The notes under the pieces were generated by a model that saw only the letters and a list, made by a program, of their open reading frames with translations, had not been told where the DNA came from and made no database searches. 58,522 bases of DNA from Eubacteriales bacterium (GTDB lineage: Bacteria > Bacillota > Clostridia > Oscillospirales > CAG-272). Each line of letters starts with the position of its first letter. Position 1 is the first letter of the stretch. Both the position numbers and the translations under genes were made by a program. The DNA lies in assembly GCA_045643725.1 (NCBI GenBank), contig JAZRFQ010000011.1, positions 1 to 58,522 of the forward strand, given 5' to 3'. This document shows positions 1 through 11,152 of the stretch, piece after piece.

Positions 1-1148
1 ACGTTTTGTGCTATATCAGGGGGTATATAAACCAGTTTGTAATTCATTACTTCATCGTGATCATAAACTTTTATTATGTTGCCGTAATCATCGTAATCGT
101 AATCATAACGATCGGATATCTCGTTTCCAAATTCATCGTAATAGTAAGTGTAGGTATATCCGTTATCTTGCGTTACAGTCCTTTCAATCAAATTTTCGTT
201 TCTGTCATATCGATATGTATAATCGTAGGTGTATGTATAGCCGGAATAATCAGTATTAACTTCTTTTATCAAAGCGCCTTTTTTGTTATAAACTTCAACA
301 TACGTAGAGATATTTTCGCTGTAATCGGTCTCGACCTTTTTAATTATAAAATTCTCGTTTTCGTCGTAATAATAGGTATAATCGTAAGTCCGATTAGATC
401 CGCTGGGACTGGTTTCAACTTCTTTAATTAAGTCACCGTTTTTATCATAAGTGTACTCGTAAGTCCAACTAACTCCGTCGGAACCGGTTTCAAGTGCTTT
501 GATTAAATAGTTATATTCGTTGTAAGTGTAAATATATGATACACTATTTCCGTCGGAGTCGAAGCCAAACTCTTCGATTAAGTTGTAATTATCATCGTAA
601 GAGTACGTAAAAGTGATGGAGTATTCACCATCAGATAAGATGTACTCTACAGGGAGATTTTTATCATTGTATCTACCGATAAAATTGATCTCTCTGCTTG
701 ACGAGATTTGAGAGCCACTTGTAATAACGTTGTGAAATCTCGATAAATATACTTTCGCATCCTTATAATCACCGAGCTCCTTGAAGAGCTCTTTTGCTGC
801 CGCATATTCAGCGGATTCAAGCAGTGCAAGAGCCTCGTTGTATTTTTCCTCTTCGGGGCTTGAGGGGGTTACATCGCTATCGTTTGTACCGTTATCTTCG
901 TCGGGGGAGACTACAACGTTGCTGTGACCGCAGGTAGTGCAGATCCCGCTAACGTAATTATGCTCTTTAGTTATGATACTTGTTGTCTGCTTCTCGCCGC
1001 AGGAGCAGTATCTTTCTTTCGTTCCTTCCTCGGTGCAAGTAGAGGCCTTCACCGCTTCCCACTCGTCAAAGTTGTGCACGTGGCTACATGAAGCGAGCGA
1101 GGTAATCAAAATAGAAGCAAGTGCAACAGTAGATAAAAACTTCTTCAT
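1..1148 (-). CDS. Lipoprotein with Cys/His-rich N-terminal module and YD-like repeats (3' end runs off the window)
   Basis: Hand-translated open frame from ATG 1148 to the window edge, with RBS AAGGAG. Signal peptide MKKFLSTVALASILITSLAS-C (lipobox), then HVHNF..ASTCTEEG..YCSCG..H..CTTCGH, then repeats such as YTYDKNGDLIKE, YRYDRNENLIER, YYYDEFGN, YDYDDYGNIIK. Absent from the ORF track because its stop lies outside the window. Confidence 0.8.
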   Translation of the reverse strand, partial: MKKFLSTVALASILITSLASCSHVHNFDEWEAVKASTCTEEGTKERYCSCGEKQTTSIITKEHNYVSGICTTCGHSNVVVSPDEDNGTNDSDVTPSSPEEEKYNEALALLESAEYAAAKELFKELGDYKDAKVYLSRFHNVITSGSQISSSREINFIGRYNDKNLPVEYILSDGEYSITFTYSYDDNYNLIEEFGFDSDGNSVSYIYTYNEYNYLIKALETGSDGVSWTYEYTYDKNGDLIKEVETSPSGSNRTYDYTYYYDENENFIIKKVETDYSENISTYVEVYNKKGALIKEVNTDYSGYTYTYDYTYRYDRNENLIERTVTQDNGYTYTYYYDEFGNEISDRYDYDYDDYGNIIKVYDHDEVMNYKLVYIPPDIAQN

Positions 1149-1222
1149 AGTTATGTTCTCCTTGATAAAATCTAATCAGCGGCATCGAATAGTGCTCGAA
1201 CTGAAATTTACTTCACATTTGT

Positions 1223-1251
1223 ATTCTAGCACAAAAATGCTTGTTTGTAAA
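1223..1251 (-). promoter_or_regulatory. Putative sigma-A promoter of the lipoprotein gene
   Basis: Minus strand TTTACA-17 bp-TAGAAT with extended TG. Confidence 0.5.
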
Positions 1252-1271
1252 CAGGAACAACGGAAAAACAT

Positions 1272-1313
1272 AAAAAAGCCACCCCACAGAGCAAAATGCC
1301 TTTGGGGTGACTT
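1272..1313 (-). terminator. Intrinsic terminator of the paaK-ior-aminotransferase operon
   Basis: Minus strand AGTCACCCCAAAGGCA..TGCTCTGTGGGGTGGCT followed by a T run, just after the aminotransferase stop. Confidence 0.75.
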
Positions 1314-1336
1314 CAATTTTAAAATTAAATCAAGCC

Positions 1337-2533
1337 TTAAAGCCCATATTCCTCCGCCAACGCCTTAAAGGCAGGGAGCGATCTCTTGATCATATCGTAA
1401 TCGGTACAGTAAGCGATTCTAATGTATCCCTCGACGCCGAAATCGTCGCAGGGAACAACGAGAAGCTCGTGAGCCTTCGTACGCTCAAAGAAGCTATATG
1501 CATCAGCCTCGGGAGCTTTCACAAAGAGATAGAACGCACCGTCGGGCTTCACACACTCAAATCCAAACTCGGTGAGATTGGTATAAAGCAGATCGCGATT
1601 CGCCTTGTAAGCGTCGATATTTACCTTCGCGTCGAGGCACTTTGCGATAACCTGCTGGAAGAGGCTGGGCGCGCAAACGTAACCGAGCGATCTTCCCGCG
1701 CCGCAAATAGCGAGATATATATTCTTGCAGTCCTCCATCTCGGGGCAAACGGCGATATAGCCGATTCGCTCACCGGGGAGCGAGAGGGACTTCGAGTAGG
1801 AATAGCATACGAGCGTGTTGGCGTAGTGATTCATAATGTAGGGAACGTCAACGTCGGAATACACAAGCTCGCGGTAGGGCTCATCGGCGATGAGGTAGAT
1901 AGGTCTGCCGTACTCCTTCGACTTTCTCGTCAGAATCTCGCAGAGCGCGTCGATGGTTTCCTTCGAGTATACAACACCGCTGGGGTTGTTGGGAGAGTTT
2001 ACGATGACCGCCTTGGTATTCTTCGTGATTTTGCTCTCGAAGTCAGCAAGATCGATCTGGAAGCTCTTTTCCTCGGGCTTGCTCACAACGATCTTTGCGC
2101 CTGCATTTGCGATAAACACACGATACTCGGTAAAGAAGGGAGCAAACGCAATGCACTCATCCTCCGCGCCCTCTTCAACGATCGCCTTCAGGCAGATGGA
2201 GAGAGAAGCGGCAGCACCGCAGGTCATATAGATGAGATCGGGAGACATATTGACGCCAAAGCGCTTGGTGATATTTTCGGAGATAGCACGGCGCACACCG
2301 AGATCGCCCTGCGCCGAGGTATATCCGTGGAGGAGCACCGAGTCAGAGGAATCGAGCAGCTCGCGAATGACGTTGTTGACCTCGTCGGGAGCAGGCACGC
2401 TGGGGTTGCCGAGGCTGAAATTAAATACGTTTTCAGCGCCGATCTCTGCCGAGCGAGTCTTGCTGTATTCAAATATTTCTCTTATAATCGAGCGCTTGTT
2501 GCCAAGCTCGAACATTTTGGTATTGTAACTCAT
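1337..2533 (-). CDS. PLP-dependent class I aminotransferase (aspartate/aromatic)
   Basis: 398 aa; motifs NSPNNPSG, DEPY and SYSKSLSLPGERIGY (PLP lysine). Confidence 0.92.
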   Translation of the reverse strand: MSYNTKMFELGNKRSIIREIFEYSKTRSAEIGAENVFNFSLGNPSVPAPDEVNNVIRELLDSSDSVLLHGYTSAQGDLGVRRAISENITKRFGVNMSPDLIYMTCGAAASLSICLKAIVEEGAEDECIAFAPFFTEYRVFIANAGAKIVVSKPEEKSFQIDLADFESKITKNTKAVIVNSPNNPSGVVYSKETIDALCEILTRKSKEYGRPIYLIADEPYRELVYSDVDVPYIMNHYANTLVCYSYSKSLSLPGERIGYIAVCPEMEDCKNIYLAICGAGRSLGYVCAPSLFQQVIAKCLDAKVNIDAYKANRDLLYTNLTEFGFECVKPDGAFYLFVKAPEADAYSFFERTKAHELLVVPCDDFGVEGYIRIAYCTDYDMIKRSLPAFKALAEEYGL

Positions 2534-2572
2534 AGCTTTCTGCCTTTGTTTTTCCCTAGAAAAAAGTAATTA

Positions 2573-3010
2573 TCAGTTGTTGCTCTCGTTGTAGAGATCC
2601 TCGCAGGTGACGGTTGTAACGCCGCTTTCGGAAAGAATCTTGTCGATCTTCTCATTATCAGACGCCTTGAGTACAACGTATGCCTCCTCGCTCTTGTAGG
2701 AGAGGCCGTACATATACTCGATGTTAACACCATTCTCGTCGATAGTCTCGAGAAGCTTCTGCAGACTTCCAACCTTGTGAGGAATCTTGATTATGCACAC
2801 GTCGGAGAGCAGAGAAGAAAATCCACACTCGGTGAGCTTCTCCTTGCCGAGAGGCGCATTGTCAACGATCAGACGGAGAAGACCGAACTCGGTAGTGTCT
2901 GCGAGACTGAGCGAAATTATATTAACGCCGCCGTTTTTGAGAGCGCCGAGCACGTCGGACAATCTTCCGGCTCTGTTTTCAATAAAAACTGTAAGTTGCT
3001 TTGCGAACAT
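2573..3010 (-). CDS. Tandem ACT-domain protein
   Basis: 145 aa; QLTVFIENRAGRL..NIISLSLADTTEFGLLRLIV..NIEYMY. Confidence 0.9.
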   Translation of the reverse strand: MFAKQLTVFIENRAGRLSDVLGALKNGGVNIISLSLADTTEFGLLRLIVDNAPLGKEKLTECGFSSLLSDVCIIKIPHKVGSLQKLLETIDENGVNIEYMYGLSYKSEEAYVVLKASDNEKIDKILSESGVTTVTCEDLYNESNN

Positions 3011-3047
3011 AGCGAACCATCCTTAATCAAAGTATTGTTTTTGATTC

Positions 3048-3620
3048 TTATTTGTTAGCGTTGTAACCGCAGGTGAAGGCCTGCTTGTTGATATCTATGG
3101 TCTTTGCAGGAACGGTATTCTCGACGATCTTCAGCCACATGTCAGCCTCAAAGCCGATGTGTGCCGCCGCAAATCCGAGAACGACCGAGTTGAGAACCTT
3201 GCTGTTTCCGAGCTCGATGGCGATCTTCTGACCGTCGATAGAGTAGACCGTGTGATCTGCCTTGAGAGTATCGAGAATGTTCTCGGGATACTCTTTAGCA
3301 CCGATCACGACCGTCATAGGATCGATTCTGCAATCGTTTACTACGATAACGCCGTCTTTCTTGAGGAAGTGCGCGTATCACAACGCCTCGAGACGCTCGA
3401 ATGCGATAATAACGTCCGCCTGACCCTCTTCAACAACGGGCTCGCTGACCTGCTCGCCGAAGCGAACGAAGGTAACTACGCTACCGCCGCGCTGTGCCAT
3501 GCCGTGAACCTCGGAGATCTTTACGTCGTAGCCCATCTCGAGAGCCGCCTTGCCTATAATACGGCTGGTGAGCAGAGTACCCTGACCGCCAACGCCGACT
3601 ATCATAATATTCTTCGTCAT
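3048..3620 (-). pseudogene. iorB: Indolepyruvate:ferredoxin oxidoreductase beta subunit, interrupted by one in-frame TGA at 3378-3380
   Basis: The two track ORFs (3378..3620 and 3048..3317) share one frame: GVGGQG..SEVHGMAQRGGSV..FERLEAL*YAHFLKKDGVIVVND..LGNSKVLNSVVLG. Could be a nonsense mutation, an assembly error or readthrough. Confidence 0.85.
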
Positions 3621-3621
3621 A

Positions 3622-5361
3622 TTATTTCACCACCGTTTCTATAGCGTCGAATTTGCAATAATTCTTGCAAAGGCCGCATCCGTTACACATAGTTGCATCG
3701 ATCTTCACGGTGCCGTCTGCCTGTTTGGTAATAGCAGGGCATCCGATCTTCAGACACATACCGCACTTGCGGCACTTCTCGGGATCGGCTACGCACACGT
3801 TCGGGAACTTCTGACCCTTGAGGAGTACGCAGGGCGACTTTGTGATAATAACGGTGAGTGTATCGCTCGCAACGCTTTCCTTGATAACCTTGGTGAGGCC
3901 TTCCACGTCGAAAGCATTGATCTCAATAACGTTTTCAACGCCGATGCTGCGGCAGAGTCCTGCGAGATCGACAGCGTATGTATCCTCGCCCTTGAGGGTC
4001 TTACCGGTAGCCGCGTGATCCTGATGTCCGGTCATGCCGGTGGTTCTGTTATCAAGGATCATAACCGTGCCGGTAGCGCGGTTGTATACCATATTAAGAA
4101 GCGAGTTGATTCCGGTGTGAAGGAAGGTAGAGTCGCCAATGACTGCTACCCAGTTTTTAACGTAATCCTTGCCTCTGCCTTTTTCCATACCGTGAAGCGA
4201 GGAAATGCTTGCACCCATACAGATCGTGGTATCAATAACACCAAGAGGAGCTACCGCACCGAGAGTATAGCATCCGATATCGCCTGCCGCGTGGATCTTG
4301 AGCTTGTTAAGAACAGAGAATACGCTTCTGTGAGGACAACCGGGGCAGAGAATGGGAGGACGTGCAGGAGCGTCGAGCTTATCGAATGCAACCTCATCCT
4401 TGCCGTACAAAACTCTGCGAAGAAGGTTTGCACTGTACTCGCCCTGACGAGTGAAGCACTCCTTGCCCTTTACCTCGAATCCCCAGGCGCGTACCTGCTC
4501 CTCGATAACGGGCTCAAGCTCCTCGAAAACGTATGCAGTCTCAACCTGCGATACAAAATCGGCAATGAGCTTCTTGGGAAGAGGATTAACGAGACCAAGC
4601 TTCAGAACGCTCGCCTCGGGGCAAACCTCTTTTACGTACTGATATGCAACGCCGCAGGTGATGAATCCGAGCTTCTTGTCCTTGATTTCCATCTTGTTGA
4701 TGGGGAAGGAGGAGGCATCCTCTGCCATACGGTTCTCCCTGTCCTCAACGACGAGATGTCTGCCGATCGCAGATGCGGGCATCATAACGTATTTCTGTAC
4801 CTGACGGCTATATTCCTTGTCCGCAACCTCGGCTCTGTCGCAGAGCTCTACGATGCTCTGGGAGTGTGCGAGCTTTGTGGTTGTGCGGAGAATTACGGGG
4901 GTGTCATACTTCTCACTGAGCTCATAACCGAACTTTACAAAGTCCTTTGCCTCCTGGCTATCAGCAGGCTCAAGAACGGGAATGTGCGCCGCACGGCCGA
5001 TCATTCTGGTGTCCTGCTCATTCTGGGAGCTTGCCATGCCGGGATCGTCGGCAACAACGATAACCGCACCGCCGTTAACTCCGGTGTAGGCGAATGTGTA
5101 GAGAGGGTCTGCAGCTACGTTAAGACCAACGTGCTTCATGCAGGCAAGGCTTCTTACACCGGAGATCGACGCTCCGATGGCAACCTCTGCCGCAACCTTC
5201 TCGTTGGGAGCCCATTCAGTATATACTTCATCATATTTTGCGAGATATTCACTGATTTCGGTGCTGGGAGTTCCGGGATATGCGCTGGAAAGCTTGACGC
5301 CCGCCTCGTATGCGCCGCGTGCTATGGCTTCATTACCAAGCATCATTGCTTTGTTTGACAT
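3622..5361 (-). CDS. iorA: Indolepyruvate:ferredoxin oxidoreductase alpha subunit
   Basis: 579 aa; GNEAIARG, YPGTPSTEI, KHVGLNVA, CPGCPHR, GDIGCY, GDSTF (TPP) and two C-terminal CxxCxxC ferredoxin motifs. Confidence 0.95.
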   Translation of the reverse strand: MSNKAMMLGNEAIARGAYEAGVKLSSAYPGTPSTEISEYLAKYDEVYTEWAPNEKVAAEVAIGASISGVRSLACMKHVGLNVAADPLYTFAYTGVNGGAVIVVADDPGMASSQNEQDTRMIGRAAHIPVLEPADSQEAKDFVKFGYELSEKYDTPVILRTTTKLAHSQSIVELCDRAEVADKEYSRQVQKYVMMPASAIGRHLVVEDRENRMAEDASSFPINKMEIKDKKLGFITCGVAYQYVKEVCPEASVLKLGLVNPLPKKLIADFVSQVETAYVFEELEPVIEEQVRAWGFEVKGKECFTRQGEYSANLLRRVLYGKDEVAFDKLDAPARPPILCPGCPHRSVFSVLNKLKIHAAGDIGCYTLGAVAPLGVIDTTICMGASISSLHGMEKGRGKDYVKNWVAVIGDSTFLHTGINSLLNMVYNRATGTVMILDNRTTGMTGHQDHAATGKTLKGEDTYAVDLAGLCRSIGVENVIEINAFDVEGLTKVIKESVASDTLTVIITKSPCVLLKGQKFPNVCVADPEKCRKCGMCLKIGCPAITKQADGTVKIDATMCNGCGLCKNYCKFDAIETVVK

Positions 5362-5387
5362 CTTATTTCAGTCCTTTCGGGGATATA

Positions 5388-6692
5388 TTACTTAATATTG
5401 CGGAGGTCCTTGACTCTCTTTGCCTTGCCTTCAAATCTCTGAAGGGTGTTAGGAGATTCGAGCATTACCTTCGCGTCGAGACCAAGAATAGTTCTGAGTC
5501 TGCTCTTGAGCGTTGTAGATATTTTCTCGAGAGTAGAGAAGGAGTCGGTTATCGTGGCAAGCTCAACCTTTATAGTCATCTTGTCGAGATAGCCGTCTCT
5601 TTCGAGCACGATCTCGTAGTGAGGACCAAGCTCCTCGATACCGAGGATAACCTCTTCGATCTGGCTCGGGAATACGTTGACTCCACGGATCTTGAGCATA
5701 TCGTCGCTTCTGCCGGAGAGATTCTCCATACGGCAGAACGTTCTGCCACACTTACACTTGTCGTAGAACAGACGGGTAATATCTCTGGTTCTGTAACGGA
5801 TAAGCGGAATGCCTTCCTTCTTAATACAAGTGATAACAAGCTCGCCCTGCTCGCCCTCGGGGAGAACCTCCTCGGTCACAGGATCGATTATCTCGGGGAT
5901 GAAGAAGTCCTCGTTGATATGCATACCGCATACCTCAAGGCACTCGCCAGAAACACCGGGACCCATAAGCTCGCTCATACCGTAGTTCGAGGTGATCTTA
6001 ACGTCAGCGCCCCAGTATTTGTGCATCTCCTCGCGCATCGCGTCGGTGAGGAGCTCACTACCTACGAGAAGGGTCTTTACGTTCAGATCCTTTACGGGAT
6101 CAAGTCCCATTTCTCTTGCCACCTCGGCAAGACGAAGAGCATAGGAGGGAGTAGCAACCACAAGAGAGGTGCCGAAATCCTTCATATACATTATCTGCTT
6201 TTCGGAGTTACCGGTAGAGGAGGGAATGATAGTCGCACCGATATTCTCAAGACCGTAGTGCAGGCCGAGCGCTCCGGTGAACATTCCGTATCCGAAGCAT
6301 ATCTGTGCAACGTCGTCTTTGGTAGCACCACCCATACAGGCAATGCGCGAAACGCATTCTGTCCAGACGTCAAGGTCACCCTGGGTGTAGCCAACTACGG
6401 TAGGCTTACCGGTGGTACCGCTGGATGCGTGTATTCTGACAAGATCGTTTTTCGGAACTGCAAAGAGACCAAAGGGATAGTTGTCCCTCATATCCTGCTT
6501 CGTTACGAAGGGGAGTCTCTTAAGATCGTCGAGCGATTTTATATCTTCAGGCTTGATGCCCGCCTCGTCCATCTTTTTTCTGTAGGGCTCGACCTTCTCA
6601 TAAACGCGAGATACCGTTTCCTGAAGCCTTTCGAGCTGTATTTTTCTTATTTCTTCACGAGGAAGAGTTTCTTCTTTTGACCAAATAGACAT
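5388..6692 (-). CDS. paaK: Phenylacetate-CoA ligase family protein (copy 1)
   Basis: 434 aa; RIHASSGTTGKP, GYGMFTGALG, YGMSE, RYRTRD, GRSDDMLKIRGVNVFPSQIE. Confidence 0.92.
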   Translation of the reverse strand: MSIWSKEETLPREEIRKIQLERLQETVSRVYEKVEPYRKKMDEAGIKPEDIKSLDDLKRLPFVTKQDMRDNYPFGLFAVPKNDLVRIHASSGTTGKPTVVGYTQGDLDVWTECVSRIACMGGATKDDVAQICFGYGMFTGALGLHYGLENIGATIIPSSTGNSEKQIMYMKDFGTSLVVATPSYALRLAEVAREMGLDPVKDLNVKTLLVGSELLTDAMREEMHKYWGADVKITSNYGMSELMGPGVSGECLEVCGMHINEDFFIPEIIDPVTEEVLPEGEQGELVITCIKKEGIPLIRYRTRDITRLFYDKCKCGRTFCRMENLSGRSDDMLKIRGVNVFPSQIEEVILGIEELGPHYEIVLERDGYLDKMTIKVELATITDSFSTLEKISTTLKSRLRTILGLDAKVMLESPNTLQRFEGKAKRVKDLRNIK

Positions 6693-6732
6693 GATAAACC
6701 TTCTATAATTTTATTTCTAAAATATAAAAGCT

Positions 6733-6761
6733 ATTATATCATACATCGAAGCCCTTGTCAA
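6733..6761 (-). promoter_or_regulatory. Sigma-A promoter of the paaK1-ior operon
   Basis: Minus strand TTGACA-17 bp-TATAAT with extended TG. Confidence 0.8.
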
Positions 6762-6892
6762 TAAGTTAAGAGTATTTTCACCGCGTTTCTTGTCGAAAAA
6801 AGTGAGAAGCTATGCGCTACCGAATTCCATCCCGCACGTGATCATCCCAAGAAAAGAATCGAAATTTAAAACAACTTTTTTCAAAAAATCCC

Positions 6893-6921
6893 TTGACAGA
6901 CTTCAAAAAAGGTGCTATAAT
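6893..6921 (+). promoter_or_regulatory. Sigma-A promoter of the T-box-paaK2 transcript
   Basis: TTGACA (6893-6898), 17 bp, TATAAT (6916-6921), with TGn extension. Confidence 0.85.
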
Positions 6922-6929
6922 CACCACAT

Positions 6930-7207
6930 AAATGCGATGAGCAGAAACCAGTAGGTTGGAAAGAACCTGGAGAGAGTTGCCGGTTGGTGCGAGGCAAAGG
7001 GGGCGTCCTTCTCGAATTCATTCTGTTAGCAGTGCGCTGAATCGGAGAGATCCGTAGTAGGATGCAACGGGTGTTCCCGTTACAGAACTAAGGTATGTTA
7101 GTACTTGAAAAGGTCGCTACCGTGAGATAGCGGCGAACTGAGGTGGTACCACGGGATTGAATTTTCTCGTCCTCTGTATTCTTTAGCGGAATGCAGAGGA
7201 CTTTTTT
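6930..7207 (+). ncRNA. T-box riboswitch (transcriptional), predicted Phe specifier UUC
   Basis: Stem I with GCGATGA, AGTA, AGAGAG and GGTG loop. Specifier loop GAA-TTC-A (7014-7020). Stem II with GAA/AGTA, CCGTTA element, stem III. T-box GAGG-TGGTACC-ACG (7140-7153) pairs with CGT-CCTC. Overlapping terminator follows. Confidence 0.92.
7169..7207 (+). terminator. T-box attenuator terminator
   Basis: GTCCTCTGTATTC / GAATGCAGAGGAC stem followed by TTTTTT; shares its 5' arm with the antiterminator. Confidence 0.9.
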
Positions 7208-7265
7208 GTCCTTTCACTCCGAGCAATTCAAAACCGAGCGAAGTCTCAAAAAGAAAGGAAAAACC

Positions 7266-8576
7266 ATGGCAGAGCAGAATTACTTCCAAAAAGAAATCGA
7301 AACAATGCCGATTGAAGAAATGAAAAAGCTTCAATCGGAAAAGATCGTAAAACAGGTTAAGCACGTTTATGATAACGTTCCTTATTATCGTGATCTTATG
7401 GATAAGAAAGGTGTCACCCCCGACGATATTCATGGTATCGACGATCTTCATAAGCTTCCGTTCATCAGTAAGGCTGACCTTCGTGACGCCTATCCTTACG
7501 GACTCCTCGCAAAGCCTCTTGAGGATTGTGTTCGTATTCAGTCGACCTCCGGCACTACCGGTCGTCGCGTAGTTGCCTTCTACACACAGCATGACATCGA
7601 CCTTTGGGAGGATTGCTGTGCTCGCGCGATTGTTGCGGTAGGCGGAACCAAGAAGGACGTTTGTCAGGTAGCATACGGATATGGTCTTTTCACTGGCGGC
7701 GCCGGTCTTCACGGTGGCTCGCATAAGGTCGGTTGTCTCACGCTTCCTCTGTCCTCGGGTAACACCGAGCGTCAGATCCAGTTCATGACAGATCTTTCTG
7801 CGACCATCCTTTGTTGCACACCCTCTTATGCCGCATATCTCGGCGAGAGTCTTAAAGAGCAGGGCTACACCCCCGATTCTATTCCCCTGAAGGCAGGCAT
7901 CTTCGGCGCAGAGCCCTGGACCGAGGAGATGCGTAAGAGCATCGAGGCAACTCTCGGCATCAAAGCGTACGATATTTACGGTCTCACCGAGACCTCCGGC
8001 CCCGGCGTTGCATTCGAGTGTAGCGAGCAGACGGGTATGCACGTTAACGAGGACCACTTCTATCCCGAGATCATCGATCCCGACACGGGCGAGGTTCTTC
8101 CCGAGGGTAGCAAGGGTGAGCTCGTGTTCACCTCTCTCGATAAGGAAGCATTCCCGCTTCTTCGTTATCGCACTCGCGACATCTGCGTTCTTTCTCGCAA
8201 GAAGTGCTCCTGCGGCAGAACTCTTATCAAGATGGCGAAGCCTATGGGCAGAACCGACGATATGCTCATCATCCGCGGAGTCAACGTATTCCCGAGCCAG
8301 ATCGAGACGGTTCTTCTGAAGGAGGGCTACGAGCCCAACTATCAGATCGTTGTTGATAGAGTTAAGAACAACGATACCTTTGATATTAACGTAGAAATCC
8401 CCGCGGAGAAATTCACCGATAAGGTGGGCGAGGTTATGGCTATGGAAAAGGCCCTTGCAGGTGCAATAAAGACCATGCTCGGTATCAACCCGGCGGTACA
8501 TCTCGTTCCGCCCAAGACCATCGCACGAAGCGAGGGCAAGGCGGTTCGCGTTGTTGATAAGCGCAAGCTGATTTAG
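7266..8576 (+). CDS. paaK: Phenylacetate-CoA ligase family protein (copy 2, T-box controlled)
   Basis: ATG 7266 after GAAAGGA; RIQSTSGTTGRR, YGYGLFTGGAG, YGLTE, GRTDDMLIIRGVNVFPSQIE. Confidence 0.92.
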   Translation: MAEQNYFQKEIETMPIEEMKKLQSEKIVKQVKHVYDNVPYYRDLMDKKGVTPDDIHGIDDLHKLPFISKADLRDAYPYGLLAKPLEDCVRIQSTSGTTGRRVVAFYTQHDIDLWEDCCARAIVAVGGTKKDVCQVAYGYGLFTGGAGLHGGSHKVGCLTLPLSSGNTERQIQFMTDLSATILCCTPSYAAYLGESLKEQGYTPDSIPLKAGIFGAEPWTEEMRKSIEATLGIKAYDIYGLTETSGPGVAFECSEQTGMHVNEDHFYPEIIDPDTGEVLPEGSKGELVFTSLDKEAFPLLRYRTRDICVLSRKKCSCGRTLIKMAKPMGRTDDMLIIRGVNVFPSQIETVLLKEGYEPNYQIVVDRVKNNDTFDINVEIPAEKFTDKVGEVMAMEKALAGAIKTMLGINPAVHLVPPKTIARSEGKAVRVVDKRKLI

Positions 8577-8597
8577 TCAAGAAAGGGAGCAACGATT

Positions 8598-9029
8598 ATG
8601 GCAATCAAGCAATTAACAGTATTCATACAGAATAAAAAGGGTACCGTTGTTTCGGTCACCGAGATCCTCGCGAAAAATAATATAAACTTGCGCGCTCTTT
8701 CCATCGCGGAGACGCAAGACTTTGGAATTCTTCGTCTGATTGTAAACGATGAGGCTGCAGCAGAAAAAGTTCTCAGAGAAAACGGATATCTTATCAAGGT
8801 CATCGATGTTGTGGGTGTCAAGATCGGCGACGCCCCCGGCAAGCTCACAGCTGCCCTCGACGTTCTTGATAAAGCAAACATCAACGTTGAGTATCTCTAT
8901 GCATTTATGGCGCGCACCGAGAAGCACGCTTACGTCGTTCTTCGCGTAGAGGATAACGCGGAAGCAGAGAGTGTTCTCATCTCCGCCGGCTTCAAGATGA
9001 TCAGCGAGGCTGACATCAATAAGCTTTAA
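8598..9029 (+). CDS. Tandem ACT-domain protein
   Basis: 143 aa, paralog of 2573..3010: QLTVFIQNKKG..NLRALSIAETQDFGILRLIV..NVEYLYAF. Confidence 0.9.
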   Translation: MAIKQLTVFIQNKKGTVVSVTEILAKNNINLRALSIAETQDFGILRLIVNDEAAAEKVLRENGYLIKVIDVVGVKIGDAPGKLTAALDVLDKANINVEYLYAFMARTEKHAYVVLRVEDNAEAESVLISAGFKMISEADINKL

Positions 9030-9051
9030 TATTCAAATTCTTCGATATAAA

Positions 9052-9082
9052 GCTCCCGAACAGTTGCGTTTGGGAGCCTTTT
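9052..9082 (+). terminator. Intrinsic terminator
   Basis: GCTCCCGAAC / GTTTGGGAGC stem plus T run. Confidence 0.75.
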
Positions 9083-9147
9083 GTTTGTGTCGCTCATCTC
9101 GCCTTCAGATATATTTTCTTTTATAGCCTAAATTTTCCGCAATTTAC

Positions 9148-9176
9148 TTGACTTTAACGCGCGCATAGTTTATAAT
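9148..9176 (+). promoter_or_regulatory. Sigma-A promoter of the sugar oxidoreductase/isomerase operon
   Basis: TTGACT-17 bp-TATAAT. Confidence 0.7.
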
Positions 9177-9211
9177 TAGAAAGTAAATATTTATTTTAAG
9201 GAGATCTTCAA

Positions 9212-10015
9212 ATGAAAGAATTTGGACTTCAGGTTTATTCTGTTCGTGACCACCTTGACACCAAGGAGAATCTTGCAGCAACCTTTAAGGAGCTCGCAGC
9301 TATGGGATATTCGAGCATTCACTCTGCTGTTATCCACCACTATCCTGCGGAGTTTTTGAAGCAGGCTGCTGATGAGGCGGGACTTATCTTCTGCGGTACT
9401 CACTATCCTTGGGACAGAGTTCTCAACGACGTTGAGCTTACCATAGCAGAGCATGAGATACTTGGTACCAAGAACATCGGTATCGGCGGTATGCCCCCCG
9501 AGGCAAGAAACGACCTTGCAGGTCTTAACAAGTTCATTGACGAGTTCAATGCAGCTGTAGAAATTTATTCTGCTCGCGGCTTCAAGCTTACCTATCACAA
9601 CCACTCCTTCGAGTTCAGAAGACTCGAGGACGGCAGAACTCTCTTCGATCACCTTATGGAGAGATTCGATCCCGAGAAGGTCTCCTTCGTTCTTGATACA
9701 TATTGGTGTCAGCACGCAGGCATCGACGTAAGAGCTATGATCGAGAAGCTTGCAGGCAGAATCGACATCCTTCACCTCAAGGATATGGAGGCTGCTTATA
9801 ACTTCAAGCTCGAGGACGGCGCGACTCTTACCGCTCCCCGTATTACCGAGGTTGGTAACGGCAACATCAACTTCAAGGACATCATTCCCCTCGCAGAGAA
9901 GTGCGGCGTTAAGTACTTCGTGGTTGAGGATGACAGAGCACCTATGACCGGCGACTCTATGGGCGCAGTTAAGAAGTCCGCAGACTACATCAAGGCTAAC
10001 CTTCTCGAGAAGTAA
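9212..10015 (+). CDS. Sugar phosphate isomerase/epimerase family TIM-barrel protein (AP_endonuc_2)
   Basis: GLQVYSVRD, YHNHSFEF, LDTYW, HLKD, VGNGNINF, VVEDD. Confidence 0.88.
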   Translation: MKEFGLQVYSVRDHLDTKENLAATFKELAAMGYSSIHSAVIHHYPAEFLKQAADEAGLIFCGTHYPWDRVLNDVELTIAEHEILGTKNIGIGGMPPEARNDLAGLNKFIDEFNAAVEIYSARGFKLTYHNHSFEFRRLEDGRTLFDHLMERFDPEKVSFVLDTYWCQHAGIDVRAMIEKLAGRIDILHLKDMEAAYNFKLEDGATLTAPRITEVGNGNINFKDIIPLAEKCGVKYFVVEDDRAPMTGDSMGAVKKSADYIKANLLEK

Positions 10016-10024
10016 TAAATAATC

Positions 10025-10057
10025 AAAAGACTATCCATTTTACGTGGGTAGTCTTTT
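10025..10057 (+). terminator. Intergenic hairpin (terminator or mRNA stabiliser)
   Basis: AAAAGACTATCCA / TGGGTAGTCTTTT inverted repeat. Confidence 0.6.
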
Positions 10058-10081
10058 AACCATAATTTCAAGGAGATAAAT

Positions 10082-11152
10082 ATGGGCAGAACTCACGTTG
10101 TTGCCGTGATCGGATGCGGCAGAATCGCCAAGCTCGCGCACTTTCCGGCACTCTCTAAAATGGATGGAGTACGCATCAAGTACGCCTGTGATATAATTCC
10201 CGAGAAGGCCGAGAAGGCGAAAGCAAAGTACCCCGAACTTATCGAGAACGTCATTACAGATTACAATATCGCTCTCGCAGATCCCGAGGTTGAGTCGGTG
10301 TTCGTTCTCACCCCCAACTTCGCTCACTATACTATAACGATGGACGCACTCCGCGCAGGTAAGCACGTTATGTGCGAGAAGCCGATTACAGTCAACTACG
10401 ACCTCTCTCTCGAAATGGCAGAGGAGGCCGACAAGCAGGGAAAGATCCTCAATATCGGCGTTTGTAACCGATATAACGCGGTAGTTGAGCGCCTTGCCGA
10501 GATGTATAAAAACGGCGACTTCGGCAACGTCTATCACGTATATTGCTCCTTTAGAAGCTTCAGATCTATTCCGGGACTTGGCGGCGATTTTACAACCAAG
10601 TCGCAGTCGGGCGGAGGTGTTCTCATAGATTGGGGTGTACACTATCTTGATCTTATACTCTATATCCTCGGCTCGCCGAAAATCAAGAACGTGACCTGCG
10701 ACGCCTACTCCGAGATGGCAAAGGATATGCAGTCCTACAAATACGCTGAAATGTGGGCAGAGGACACTAAGGATACCGAGTGCGGCACCAACGACGTTGA
10801 TGATTTTATCAGCGGATACGTCAGAACCGATACGGCATCCATCTCCTTTAACGGCGCTTGGGCCCAGAATATTGATTCCAAAGACCGATTCATCGATTTT
10901 CTCGGTGATAGGGGCGGTGCAAGACTCACGTATTGCGGTCAGTTCACTTTCACGAACGGCGAAACGCTCGAGAGCTATACGTCGGAGATCGACATTCCCG
11001 ATATGTATCTCTGCGAGGACAGAGATTTCCTTGAATGTGCCGCGAGAGGCGAGAAGAATCGCAACAACATCGACAACATACTTGAGAGTATGAAGCTCCT
11101 CGACAGACTTTATAAGTCTGCCGACGTAAGAAAAGAAATTGAGGTACAGTAA
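10082..11152 (+). CDS. Gfo/Idh/MocA family NAD(P)-dependent oxidoreductase
   Basis: IGCGRIA, TPNFAH, GKHVMCEKP, GGGVLIDWGVHYLD. Confidence 0.92.
   Translation: MGRTHVVAVIGCGRIAKLAHFPALSKMDGVRIKYACDIIPEKAEKAKAKYPELIENVITDYNIALADPEVESVFVLTPNFAHYTITMDALRAGKHVMCEKPITVNYDLSLEMAEEADKQGKILNIGVCNRYNAVVERLAEMYKNGDFGNVYHVYCSFRSFRSIPGLGGDFTTKSQSGGGVLIDWGVHYLDLILYILGSPKIKNVTCDAYSEMAKDMQSYKYAEMWAEDTKDTECGTNDVDDFISGYVRTDTASISFNGAWAQNIDSKDRFIDFLGDRGGARLTYCGQFTFTNGETLESYTSEIDIPDMYLCEDRDFLECAARGEKNRNNIDNILESMKLLDRLYKSADVRKEIEVQ

Follow-up and report, generated by a model that had tools for sequence, protein, structure and literature searches.

A phenylalanine-specific T-box leader precedes a phenylacetate-CoA ligase-like operon in gut Clostridia and suggests starvation-induced salvage of phenylalanine

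We analyzed a 58,522-nucleotide stretch of DNA (the window), which is contig C11 (JAZRFQ010000011.1) of a Eubacteriales bacterium (assembly GCA_045643725.1). The assembly is a metagenome bin of 1.35 Mb in 53 contigs, and it is 65.7% complete. Two divergent operons in the window together encode aryl-acetate-CoA ligases, both subunits of indolepyruvate:ferredoxin oxidoreductase (IOR), and an aminotransferase. The operon on the minus strand is paaK1-iorA-iorB-ACT-aminotransferase, where ACT indicates an ACT-pair protein, and the operon on the plus strand is paaK2-ACT. Between the promoter of the plus-strand operon and paaK2 lies a T-box leader. T-boxes switch genes on when their cognate tRNA is uncharged. 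We think it likely that this leader is a transcriptional T-box specific for the tRNA for phenylalanine (Phe), that it gates the ligase (most likely a phenylacetate-CoA ligase) and its ACT partner, and that the operon takes part in the salvage of Phe during starvation.

The leader is complete. It aligns to positions 1-219 of the 219 positions of Rfam's T-box model, with a score of 109.6 bits (the gathering score is 93; E = 2.4e-23), and it is the sole Rfam match in the window. In the alignment to the model, Stem I has the AGUA motif (6952-6955) and the AGAGA and GGUUGGUG distal motifs, and the conserved T-box sequence AACUGAGGUGGUACCACGGG is at 7136-7155. If the 3' domain is folded alone, it forms the antiterminator (4 base pairs, a 7-nucleotide bulge, and another 6 base pairs). 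If 35 more bases are included, it forms the 14-base-pair terminator instead (-27.4 kcal/mol, z = -4.0 relative to shuffled sequences). Both structures need nucleotides 7169-7174, so they are mutually exclusive. A preliminary description of this DNA had proposed a complete T-box leader between a perfect promoter and paaK2, with antiterminator and terminator stems that exclude each other, and had recommended a run of the Rfam model. All of this is borne out by our results, and the model's specifier position is UUC, a Phe codon. The one correction is that the preliminary description started the downstream reading frame at 7267, while the ATG is at 7266.

Table 1. Features of the two divergent operons in the window, and prephenate dehydratase genes behind the same cassette in relatives (coordinates within the named locus)
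Feature	Position	Strand	Evidence or detail
Aminotransferase, class I/II, PRK06836 family	1337..2533	-	550 bits, above the cut-off of 376
Second ACT-pair protein	2573..3010	-	Profile
iorB, IOR beta subunit, with in-frame TGA at 3378-3380	3048..3620	-	Profiles and reading frame
iorA, IOR alpha subunit	3622..5361	-	TIGR03336, 685 bits, above the cut-off of 651
paaK1, second PaaK-family ligase	5388..6692	-	Profile and alignment
Promoter of the paaK1-ior operon	6733..6761	-	Promoter scan, 12/12
Sigma-70-type promoter, TTGACA-17-TATAAT with upstream TG (extended -10)	6893..6921	+	12/12 matches; kept in aligned leaders
T-box leader (Stem I, Stem II, IIA/B, Stem III, antiterminator)	6928..7177	+	RF00230
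Specifier loop, 3' side: GAA 7014-7016, UUC 7017-7019, A 7020	7014..7020	+	Sequence and RF00230 alignment
Antiterminator helix; GAGG 7140-7143 pairs with CCUC 7171-7174	7140..7174	+	-10.2 kcal/mol
T-box bulge UGGUACC, variable base U at 7147	7144..7150	+	Sequence, RF00230 alignment, and fold
Intrinsic terminator: 14-bp stem (7169-7201), 5-nt loop, T6; overlaps 3' strand of antiterminator	7169..7207	+	Scan and fold
paaK2, PaaK-family aryl-acetate-CoA ligase, 436 aa	7266..8576	+	PF00501 and PF14535; solved-structure matches
ACT-pair protein (ACT2, PF19571), 143 aa, co-transcribed partner	8598..9029	+	Closest solved structure 2f06, E = 5.5e-27
Terminator-like hairpin closing the two-gene operon	9052..9077	+	Terminator scan
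Prephenate dehydratase downstream of T-box-paaK2-ACT, locus L012	3016-4131		
Prephenate dehydratase downstream of T-box-paaK2-ACT, locus L017	4467-5579		
Prephenate dehydratase downstream of T-box-paaK2-ACT, locus L069	1790-2878		

We compared the leader to those of related ligase genes. We considered the 80 nearest ligase loci from species-representative genomes, whose proteins are 82-91% identical to PaaK2. Three of these had too little upstream DNA and were left out, so 77 close loci were assessable. The closest loci are from Acutalibacteraceae, Oscillospiraceae, and Clostridia bins from the guts of cattle, sheep, goats, yaks, deer, and buffalo. The leader is present at 59 of the 77 loci: in 58 cases, the T-box core motif lies 93-170 nucleotides before the ligase match, and Rfam identified another (L086).

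These leaders support placing the specifier at GAA-UUC-A, as the preliminary description had read it. The helix that closes the specifier loop begins directly after A 7020 (GCAGAA pairs with UUCUGU), and across an alignment of 58 leaders, AU and GC pairs replace each other at 3 of its 6 pairs. Over the whole leader, 31 of the 60 predicted pairs, including pairs in this closing helix, show compensatory changes. The specifier column is invariant in 57 of the 58 aligned leaders, while the strand just 5' of GAA-UUC varies freely. The preliminary description had named UUC, UAC, and UGG as the specifiers to look for upstream of paaK genes. Among the leaders of the close loci, 58 of 59 have UUC, and none has a codon for tyrosine (Tyr) or tryptophan (Trp). 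(The count of UUC is from 56 rows of the alignment, including the window's own, and from L066, L048, and L086, which we read as GAA-UUC by eye.)

As a second and independent draw, we used 400 Clostridia genomes that are spread evenly over the class, of which 271 contain PaaK-like genes. There were 26 ligase matches with at least 83% identity, in 25 genomes from 13 family codes. The leader precedes 20 of the 24 that could be assessed, in 10 family codes, and all 20 leaders have UUC.

Within the window's own genus, genomes contain up to three ligase paralogs, which are around 50%, 56-62%, 75-78%, or at least 88% identical to PaaK2. The leader is present at all 8 of the ligase genes in the highest group and at none of the 6 genes in the 75-78% group, which are in iorA-iorB-ligase-ACT operons. 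Across the 10 family codes, the T-box/ligase/ACT cassette is 83-91% identical (at the protein level). Because versions with the leader are this similar across ten families, while copies in the same genus at 75-78% lack it, we infer that the cassette is mobile, and the pattern suggests that it spreads horizontally between lineages. In a FastTree phylogeny of 192 ligase sequences, the 69 rows with a T-box require at least 12 changes of state. Most of these rows are in one crown clade, below which the ior-linked loci are spread over a mixed grade. This was a quick tree and was rooted only at its midpoint, so we draw no order of events from it. In 13 loci of a split type, iorA and iorB are followed by a promoter and T-box, and then by the ligase and ACT genes.

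What does the T-box control? PaaK2 contains PF00501 (E = 6.8e-15) and PF14535 (AMP-binding_C_2; E = 7.1e-29). Its nearest solved enzymes are phenylacetate-CoA ligases (2y4o, E = 1.5e-125 over residues 10-434; and 4r1l from Bacteroides, E = 1.4e-122), so phenylacetate is its likely substrate. An ACT-pair gene is next after the ligase in nearly all of the loci that we examined. We also predicted the structure of a complex of PaaK2 with ACT2, using our own alignments of 19 rows. The complex scored 0.46, while the best of three controls scored 0.00. In the tool's calibration, the mark was passed by 58 of 80 solved complexes and by 2 of 110 mismatched pairs; with scores of 0.60 or less, it was passed by just 7 of those 80 solved complexes along with both of the passing mismatches. 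At least 95% of contacts were the same between runs for PaaK2-ACT2, and the predicted local distance difference test (pLDDT) for the partner was at least 86. The model thus gives weak support for a complex. One could hypothesize that the ACT protein is an amino-acid-sensing partner of the ligase.

The gene neighborhoods of relatives independently support a role in biosynthesis. For example, in G449, which is from the same genus, another T-box (91.3 bits, with specifier loop GAA-UUC-C) lies before a ligase paralog that is 56% identical. Behind it, tightly spaced, are genes for the ligase, iorA, iorB, an ACT protein, and a sodium:solute symporter. In this genome, the arrangement suggests that import, activation, and the IOR step are all under one Phe sensor. 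When we checked the 30 best relatives of G449's ligase, the only sign of a T-box was one weak match of 66 nucleotides (L243, score 16).

In another five loci, paaK2-ACT is directly followed by a gene for prephenate dehydratase, which is the enzyme specific to Phe in de novo synthesis. (The loci are L012, which is the same place as L194 and is from G417; L017; L069; L197; and L059.) Where we measured it, the gap between the ACT and prephenate dehydratase genes was 73-213 nucleotides. Scans of L012, L017, and L069 found nothing like a terminator on the coding strand between the two genes, nor any promoter that scores above 9/12; the 9/12 match is in L012. In such genomes, a single Phe-controlled transcript probably covers both routes to phenylpyruvate.

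If the leader works as other T-boxes do, then the operon would be regulated as follows. When Phe is plentiful, charged tRNA-Phe would be unable to stabilize the antiterminator, the 14-base-pair terminator would form, and transcription would stop at around position 7207. When Phe is short, the GAA anticodon of uncharged tRNA-Phe would pair with UUC at 7017-7019, and its free NCCA end would pair with UGGU in the bulge. The antiterminator would then hold, and the ligase would be made. The ligase would activate phenylacetate from gut fluid, IOR from the divergent operon would reductively carboxylate phenylacetyl-CoA to phenylpyruvate (which would fix CO2), and the aminotransferase would convert phenylpyruvate to Phe. 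Flux through the whole route would amount to a starvation-induced salvage that operates beside the shikimate route. The preliminary description had proposed that Phe starvation induces the ligase, and the canonical T-box, the conserved UUC, and the logic of T-boxes all argue for this. A T-box that turns on when Phe is scarce fits with supplying Phe and has the wrong sign for disposing of a product of Phe breakdown.

Several findings weigh against this reading or narrow it. First, in the window, the T-box controls paaK2 and its ACT gene only, and not iorAB or the aminotransferase gene, because the divergent operon is transcribed from a separate promoter and lacks a leader RNA (there is no Rfam match in its leader of about 40 nucleotides). 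Similarly, we found no T-box before iorA in any of five relatives with a contiguous iorAB-ligase operon, nor in four split-type genomes with a matched contig; a fifth, L042, was ambiguous. The preliminary description had taken the leader as evidence that the ligase, IOR, and aminotransferase together run in the biosynthetic direction. The operon of G449 and the loci with prephenate dehydratase strengthen this reading.

Second, the leader is missing at 18 of the 77 close loci. The ligase gene is directly behind iorB in 15 of these and has other neighbors in 2, and in L038 it is directly behind a gene for a sodium:solute symporter, which is cut off by the end of the contig. Among more distant ligases from the class-wide sample, a search with a profile of the leader (using nhmmer) found no adjacent T-box in 40 loci at 71-81% identity or in 40 loci at 58-63% identity, and Rfam found none in 20 of the loci at 71-81%. 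Control by a T-box is therefore a feature of a clade and is not general for such gene clusters.

Third, some observations weigh on the assignment to tRNA-Phe. One leader, L015 (2139-2426), has GAA-UGC, with a codon for cysteine, while the rest of it is near the others; the change may be real or may come from an error in sequencing. The preliminary description had matched the variable U of the bulge to A73 of tRNA-Phe. The bulge and its U are present, and A73 is the discriminator base of bacterial tRNA-Phe. U can pair with A73, or with G73 by wobble. In the window's genome, the threonine (Thr), Tyr, valine (Val), leucine (Leu), and serine T-boxes each have a bulge base that fits the discriminator of their own tRNA, and the Tyr, Val, and Leu tRNAs also fit a bulge U via A73. 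Since U fits any tRNA with A73, the bulge does not single out tRNA-Phe and adds nothing to the specificity. Also, ARAGORN found no gene for tRNA-Phe among 26 tRNAs in this 65.7%-complete assembly, and none was among 24 scanned tRNA loci from its relative G417 (30 were fetched, with 40 tRNA matches).

Fourth, Phe can be made in another way. Chorismate synthase is encoded by all 12 of the genomes from the same genus that we checked, as well as by the window's genome, and prephenate dehydratase is encoded by 9 of the 12. Because the genus keeps the shikimate route, the ligase route would be for salvage and would not be essential. (We had considered the ligase route as the sole source of Phe and rejected this because chorismate synthase is present throughout the genus, and prephenate dehydratase mostly is.) The window's genome has an aro operon at C32:7309-13836 (L253), with genes for 5-enolpyruvylshikimate-3-phosphate synthase, a fusion of shikimate dehydrogenase and shikimate kinase, chorismate synthase, and a fusion of chorismate mutase and dehydroquinate synthase. 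We found no prephenate dehydratase (PDT domain) anywhere in the assembly, which at this completeness is only a lead. The place upstream of the mutase fusion, where relatives carry the prephenate dehydratase gene, is occupied in this genome by ATP-binding cassette transporter genes. Finally, the score of PaaK2 against TIGR02155 and a stop codon in iorB also count against our interpretation, and each belongs to an alternative.

The alternative that we take most seriously, although we consider it unlikely, is that the T-box is specific for Phe but the ligase acts on another acid (4-hydroxyphenylacetate, indoleacetate, or phenylpropionate) or on aryl-acetates broadly, which would make the salvage less specific. 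PaaK2 scores 528.4 bits against TIGR02155, which is below the equivalog cut-off of 646.3, so we describe it as a member of the PaaK family and do not treat phenylacetate as established. The presence of up to three ligase paralogs per genome in the genus leaves room for different substrates, and PaaK1 and PaaK2 are just 47% identical. Also, IOR enzymes take all three arylpyruvates, according to an excerpt of PMC13285125. However, the leaders nearly always specify Phe and in no case Tyr or Trp, which would be strange if the ligase served another amino acid. The similarity to solved phenylacetate-CoA ligases and the five loci with a gene for the Phe-specific prephenate dehydratase next to the cassette also favor phenylacetate.

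It is less probable still that the module is a remnant in this genome, with an intact T-box and ligase but a dead pathway. The beta subunit of IOR, which is otherwise intact, is interrupted by a TGA codon (LEAL*YAHF). This codon may be a real lesion, which would make iorB a pseudogene, or else an error in the bin; if it is real, then the local pathway is broken. In a 65.7%-complete metagenome bin, an error in the consensus is possible, and all of the other genes in both operons are intact. We also looked for this region in public sequencing runs, which are stored as contigs. The best DNA runs contain at most 0.49 of the sampled words, and the contigs over 3000-9100 are fragments from relatives only. 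In two of the DNA runs, contigs from related strains have GCG on the plus strand at 3378-3380, which is CGC (arginine) in iorB. Because these contigs diverge from the window in many other positions, they come from other strains and are silent about its codon. Moreover, we found no prephenate dehydratase gene in the assembly or at the syntenic place, and its absence would make the loss of salvage costly. (In two runs of RNA libraries, we found pieces of the leader, from 6930-7140, with 0-3 differences. Those contigs are uninformative about the ends or levels of transcripts, and such libraries may include DNA.)

A further alternative is that the ligase serves to break down or detoxify phenylacetate, as PaaK does in the aerobic paa pathway, and that the T-box is incidental or a relic. 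This idea draws on the family's name, on the nearest solved structures (from the catabolic paa pathway of Burkholderia), and on databases in which the gene is assigned to phenylalanine degradation (see the table excerpted from PMC6167468), but we consider it very improbable, because a T-box activates at amino-acid scarcity, which is the opposite of the catabolic need; because covariation and purifying selection imply that the leader is not a relic; and because the neighboring genes are for IOR, an aminotransferase, and ACT proteins (and in relatives also for prephenate dehydratase), with no paa ring-oxidation genes among the scanned reading frames of the window (1-11,152; ring-oxidation and benzoyl-CoA genes were not searched for genome-wide).

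Besides these genes, the window's minus strand has an open-ended reading frame of 382 amino acids (3-1148) with a weak match to RHS repeats (E = 1.3e-4, about at Pfam's cut-off), which is unrelated to the operons.

Other T-boxes, some of them near the cassette, precede genes that could have related roles. In L014, L033, and L176 (G420:C42), a Tyr T-box (GAA-UAC-A) lies before the gene for a sodium:solute symporter without an assigned substrate (in L014, the T-box is at 160-407 and the symporter gene is at 478-2034). In L014 and L033, this symporter gene is directly upstream of the Phe T-box/ligase cassette, and in L293 and L298, a symporter gene is just upstream of the leader. The symporter encoded by the last gene of G449's Phe T-box operon is 41% identical. 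These symporters may be importers of aryl acids.

T-boxes for branched-chain amino acids are found before genes for unusual fusions of the acyl-CoA-ligase kind and a branched-chain aminotransferase. L093 (G003:C30, 730-11230) has three T-boxes in a row. A Leu (CUC) T-box precedes a LeuA-like gene and a TIM-barrel/AMP-binding fusion; an isoleucine (Ile; AUC) T-box precedes a 755-amino-acid fusion of helix-turn-helix (HTH), cupin, and AMP-binding domains; and a Val (GUA) T-box precedes a second HTH-cupin-AMP-binding fusion and a class IV aminotransferase. Of these, the Leu and Ile systems are also present in the window's genome, where they are arranged divergently (C44:19413-23849, L001). These look like systems for the tRNA-gated activation of branched-chain fatty acids. 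The same genome also has a weak T-box match (37.9 bits) before thrS (C41:15611-15891, which is L010 1501-1781). Inside this match, at the expected place of Stem II/III, is a match to the Gut-1 RNA (RF01706, 53.2 bits, above the cut-off of 50; L010 1620-1693).

A tentative extension, which we would not put at even odds, is that the Clostridia of the ruminant gut have a wider network in which sensors of uncharged tRNAs control how fermentation acids are salvaged and turned into amino acids. The Tyr T-boxes before symporters and the Leu, Ile, and Val T-boxes would be counterparts of the Phe cassette in this network. If so, it would represent, at the level of regulation, the well-known reliance of rumen bacteria on phenylacetate and on branched-chain volatile fatty acids.

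Clusters of IOR with AMP-forming aryl-acetate ligases are very common, and whether they make or consume aromatic amino acids is debated for gut bacteria (excerpt of PMC13285125). The direction matters for whether gut communities release or take up phenylacetate, which is a precursor of host-relevant metabolites. The specifier of a T-box names the amino acid that is wanted, and in a large clade of ruminant-gut Clostridia it names Phe, which is sequence-level evidence for the anabolic direction. It also provides specific genes for an old observation from physiology, that rumen bacteria convert the carbon of phenylacetate to Phe, and it adds an acid-activating enzyme to the known T-box regulon.

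In the literature that was searchable, we found no link between a T-box and phenylacetate-CoA ligase or IOR; the supplements of surveys, TBDB, and RegPrecise were outside this search. Phenylacetate and paa are not mentioned in the main texts of two surveys of T-box regulons (PMC2494555 and PMC3766115). The excerpted paper on TBDB (PMC7778990) describes automatic annotation of downstream genes and names no such case, and the sole co-mention of T-box, phenylacetate, and riboswitch was in a paper on T-box inhibitors, in the portion that was retrieved. The pairing may already be listed, unremarked, in some table.

How does this system compare to known ones? The leader itself is an ordinary canonical T-box, and its cargo is of a new kind. 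It has the same architecture as class I transcriptional T-boxes (specifier loop, Stems, UGGNACC bulge, and competing antiterminator and terminator). Known T-boxes in Firmicutes control genes for aminoacyl-tRNA synthetases, amino-acid biosynthesis, and transporters, whereas this one precedes an AMP-forming aryl-acetate-CoA ligase and an ACT-pair protein. A smaller difference is in the base after the specifier codon, which is usually a purine in T-boxes. In this clade, it is A in 34 of the 56 counted leaders (including the window's) and C, which is unusual, in the other 22.

The window encodes the same three types of enzymes (ligase, IOR, and aminotransferase) as the aryl-acid route of rumen bacteria and methanogens, but here the ligase step is under a tRNA-Phe sensor. 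Genetic studies of the aryl-acid route have reportedly been done in Methanococcus maripaludis. That rumen organisms synthesize Phe from phenylacetate has long been known (excerpt of PMC7356843), and an excerpt of PMC13285125 refers to 2-oxoacid oxidoreductases that are anabolic in methanogens.

PaaK-like genes are usually placed under phenylalanine degradation, as in the KEGG-style table excerpted from PMC6167468. PaaK of Burkholderia cenocepacia (2y4o and 2y27), which is from an aerobic catabolon, belongs to the same fold family as PaaK2 and has the same pair of domains. PaaK2 differs from it in gene context, in its probable regulation by Phe shortage, and in its score below the TIGR02155 cut-off.

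The closest parallel for the gene content is in Bacteroides, where an IOR cluster has the ligase, IOR, and ACT-pair families in common with the window (as in the similarity of PaaK2 to 4r1l and of ACT2 to 2f06). To our knowledge, Bacteroidota have no T-boxes. For the Bacteroides cluster, it has been argued that AMP-forming ligases favor the formation of acyl-CoA, and the authors suggest a biosynthetic role while noting evidence for the opposite direction, so the debate is open (excerpt of PMC13285125). In the Clostridia clade, in contrast, the regulation itself points to the direction.

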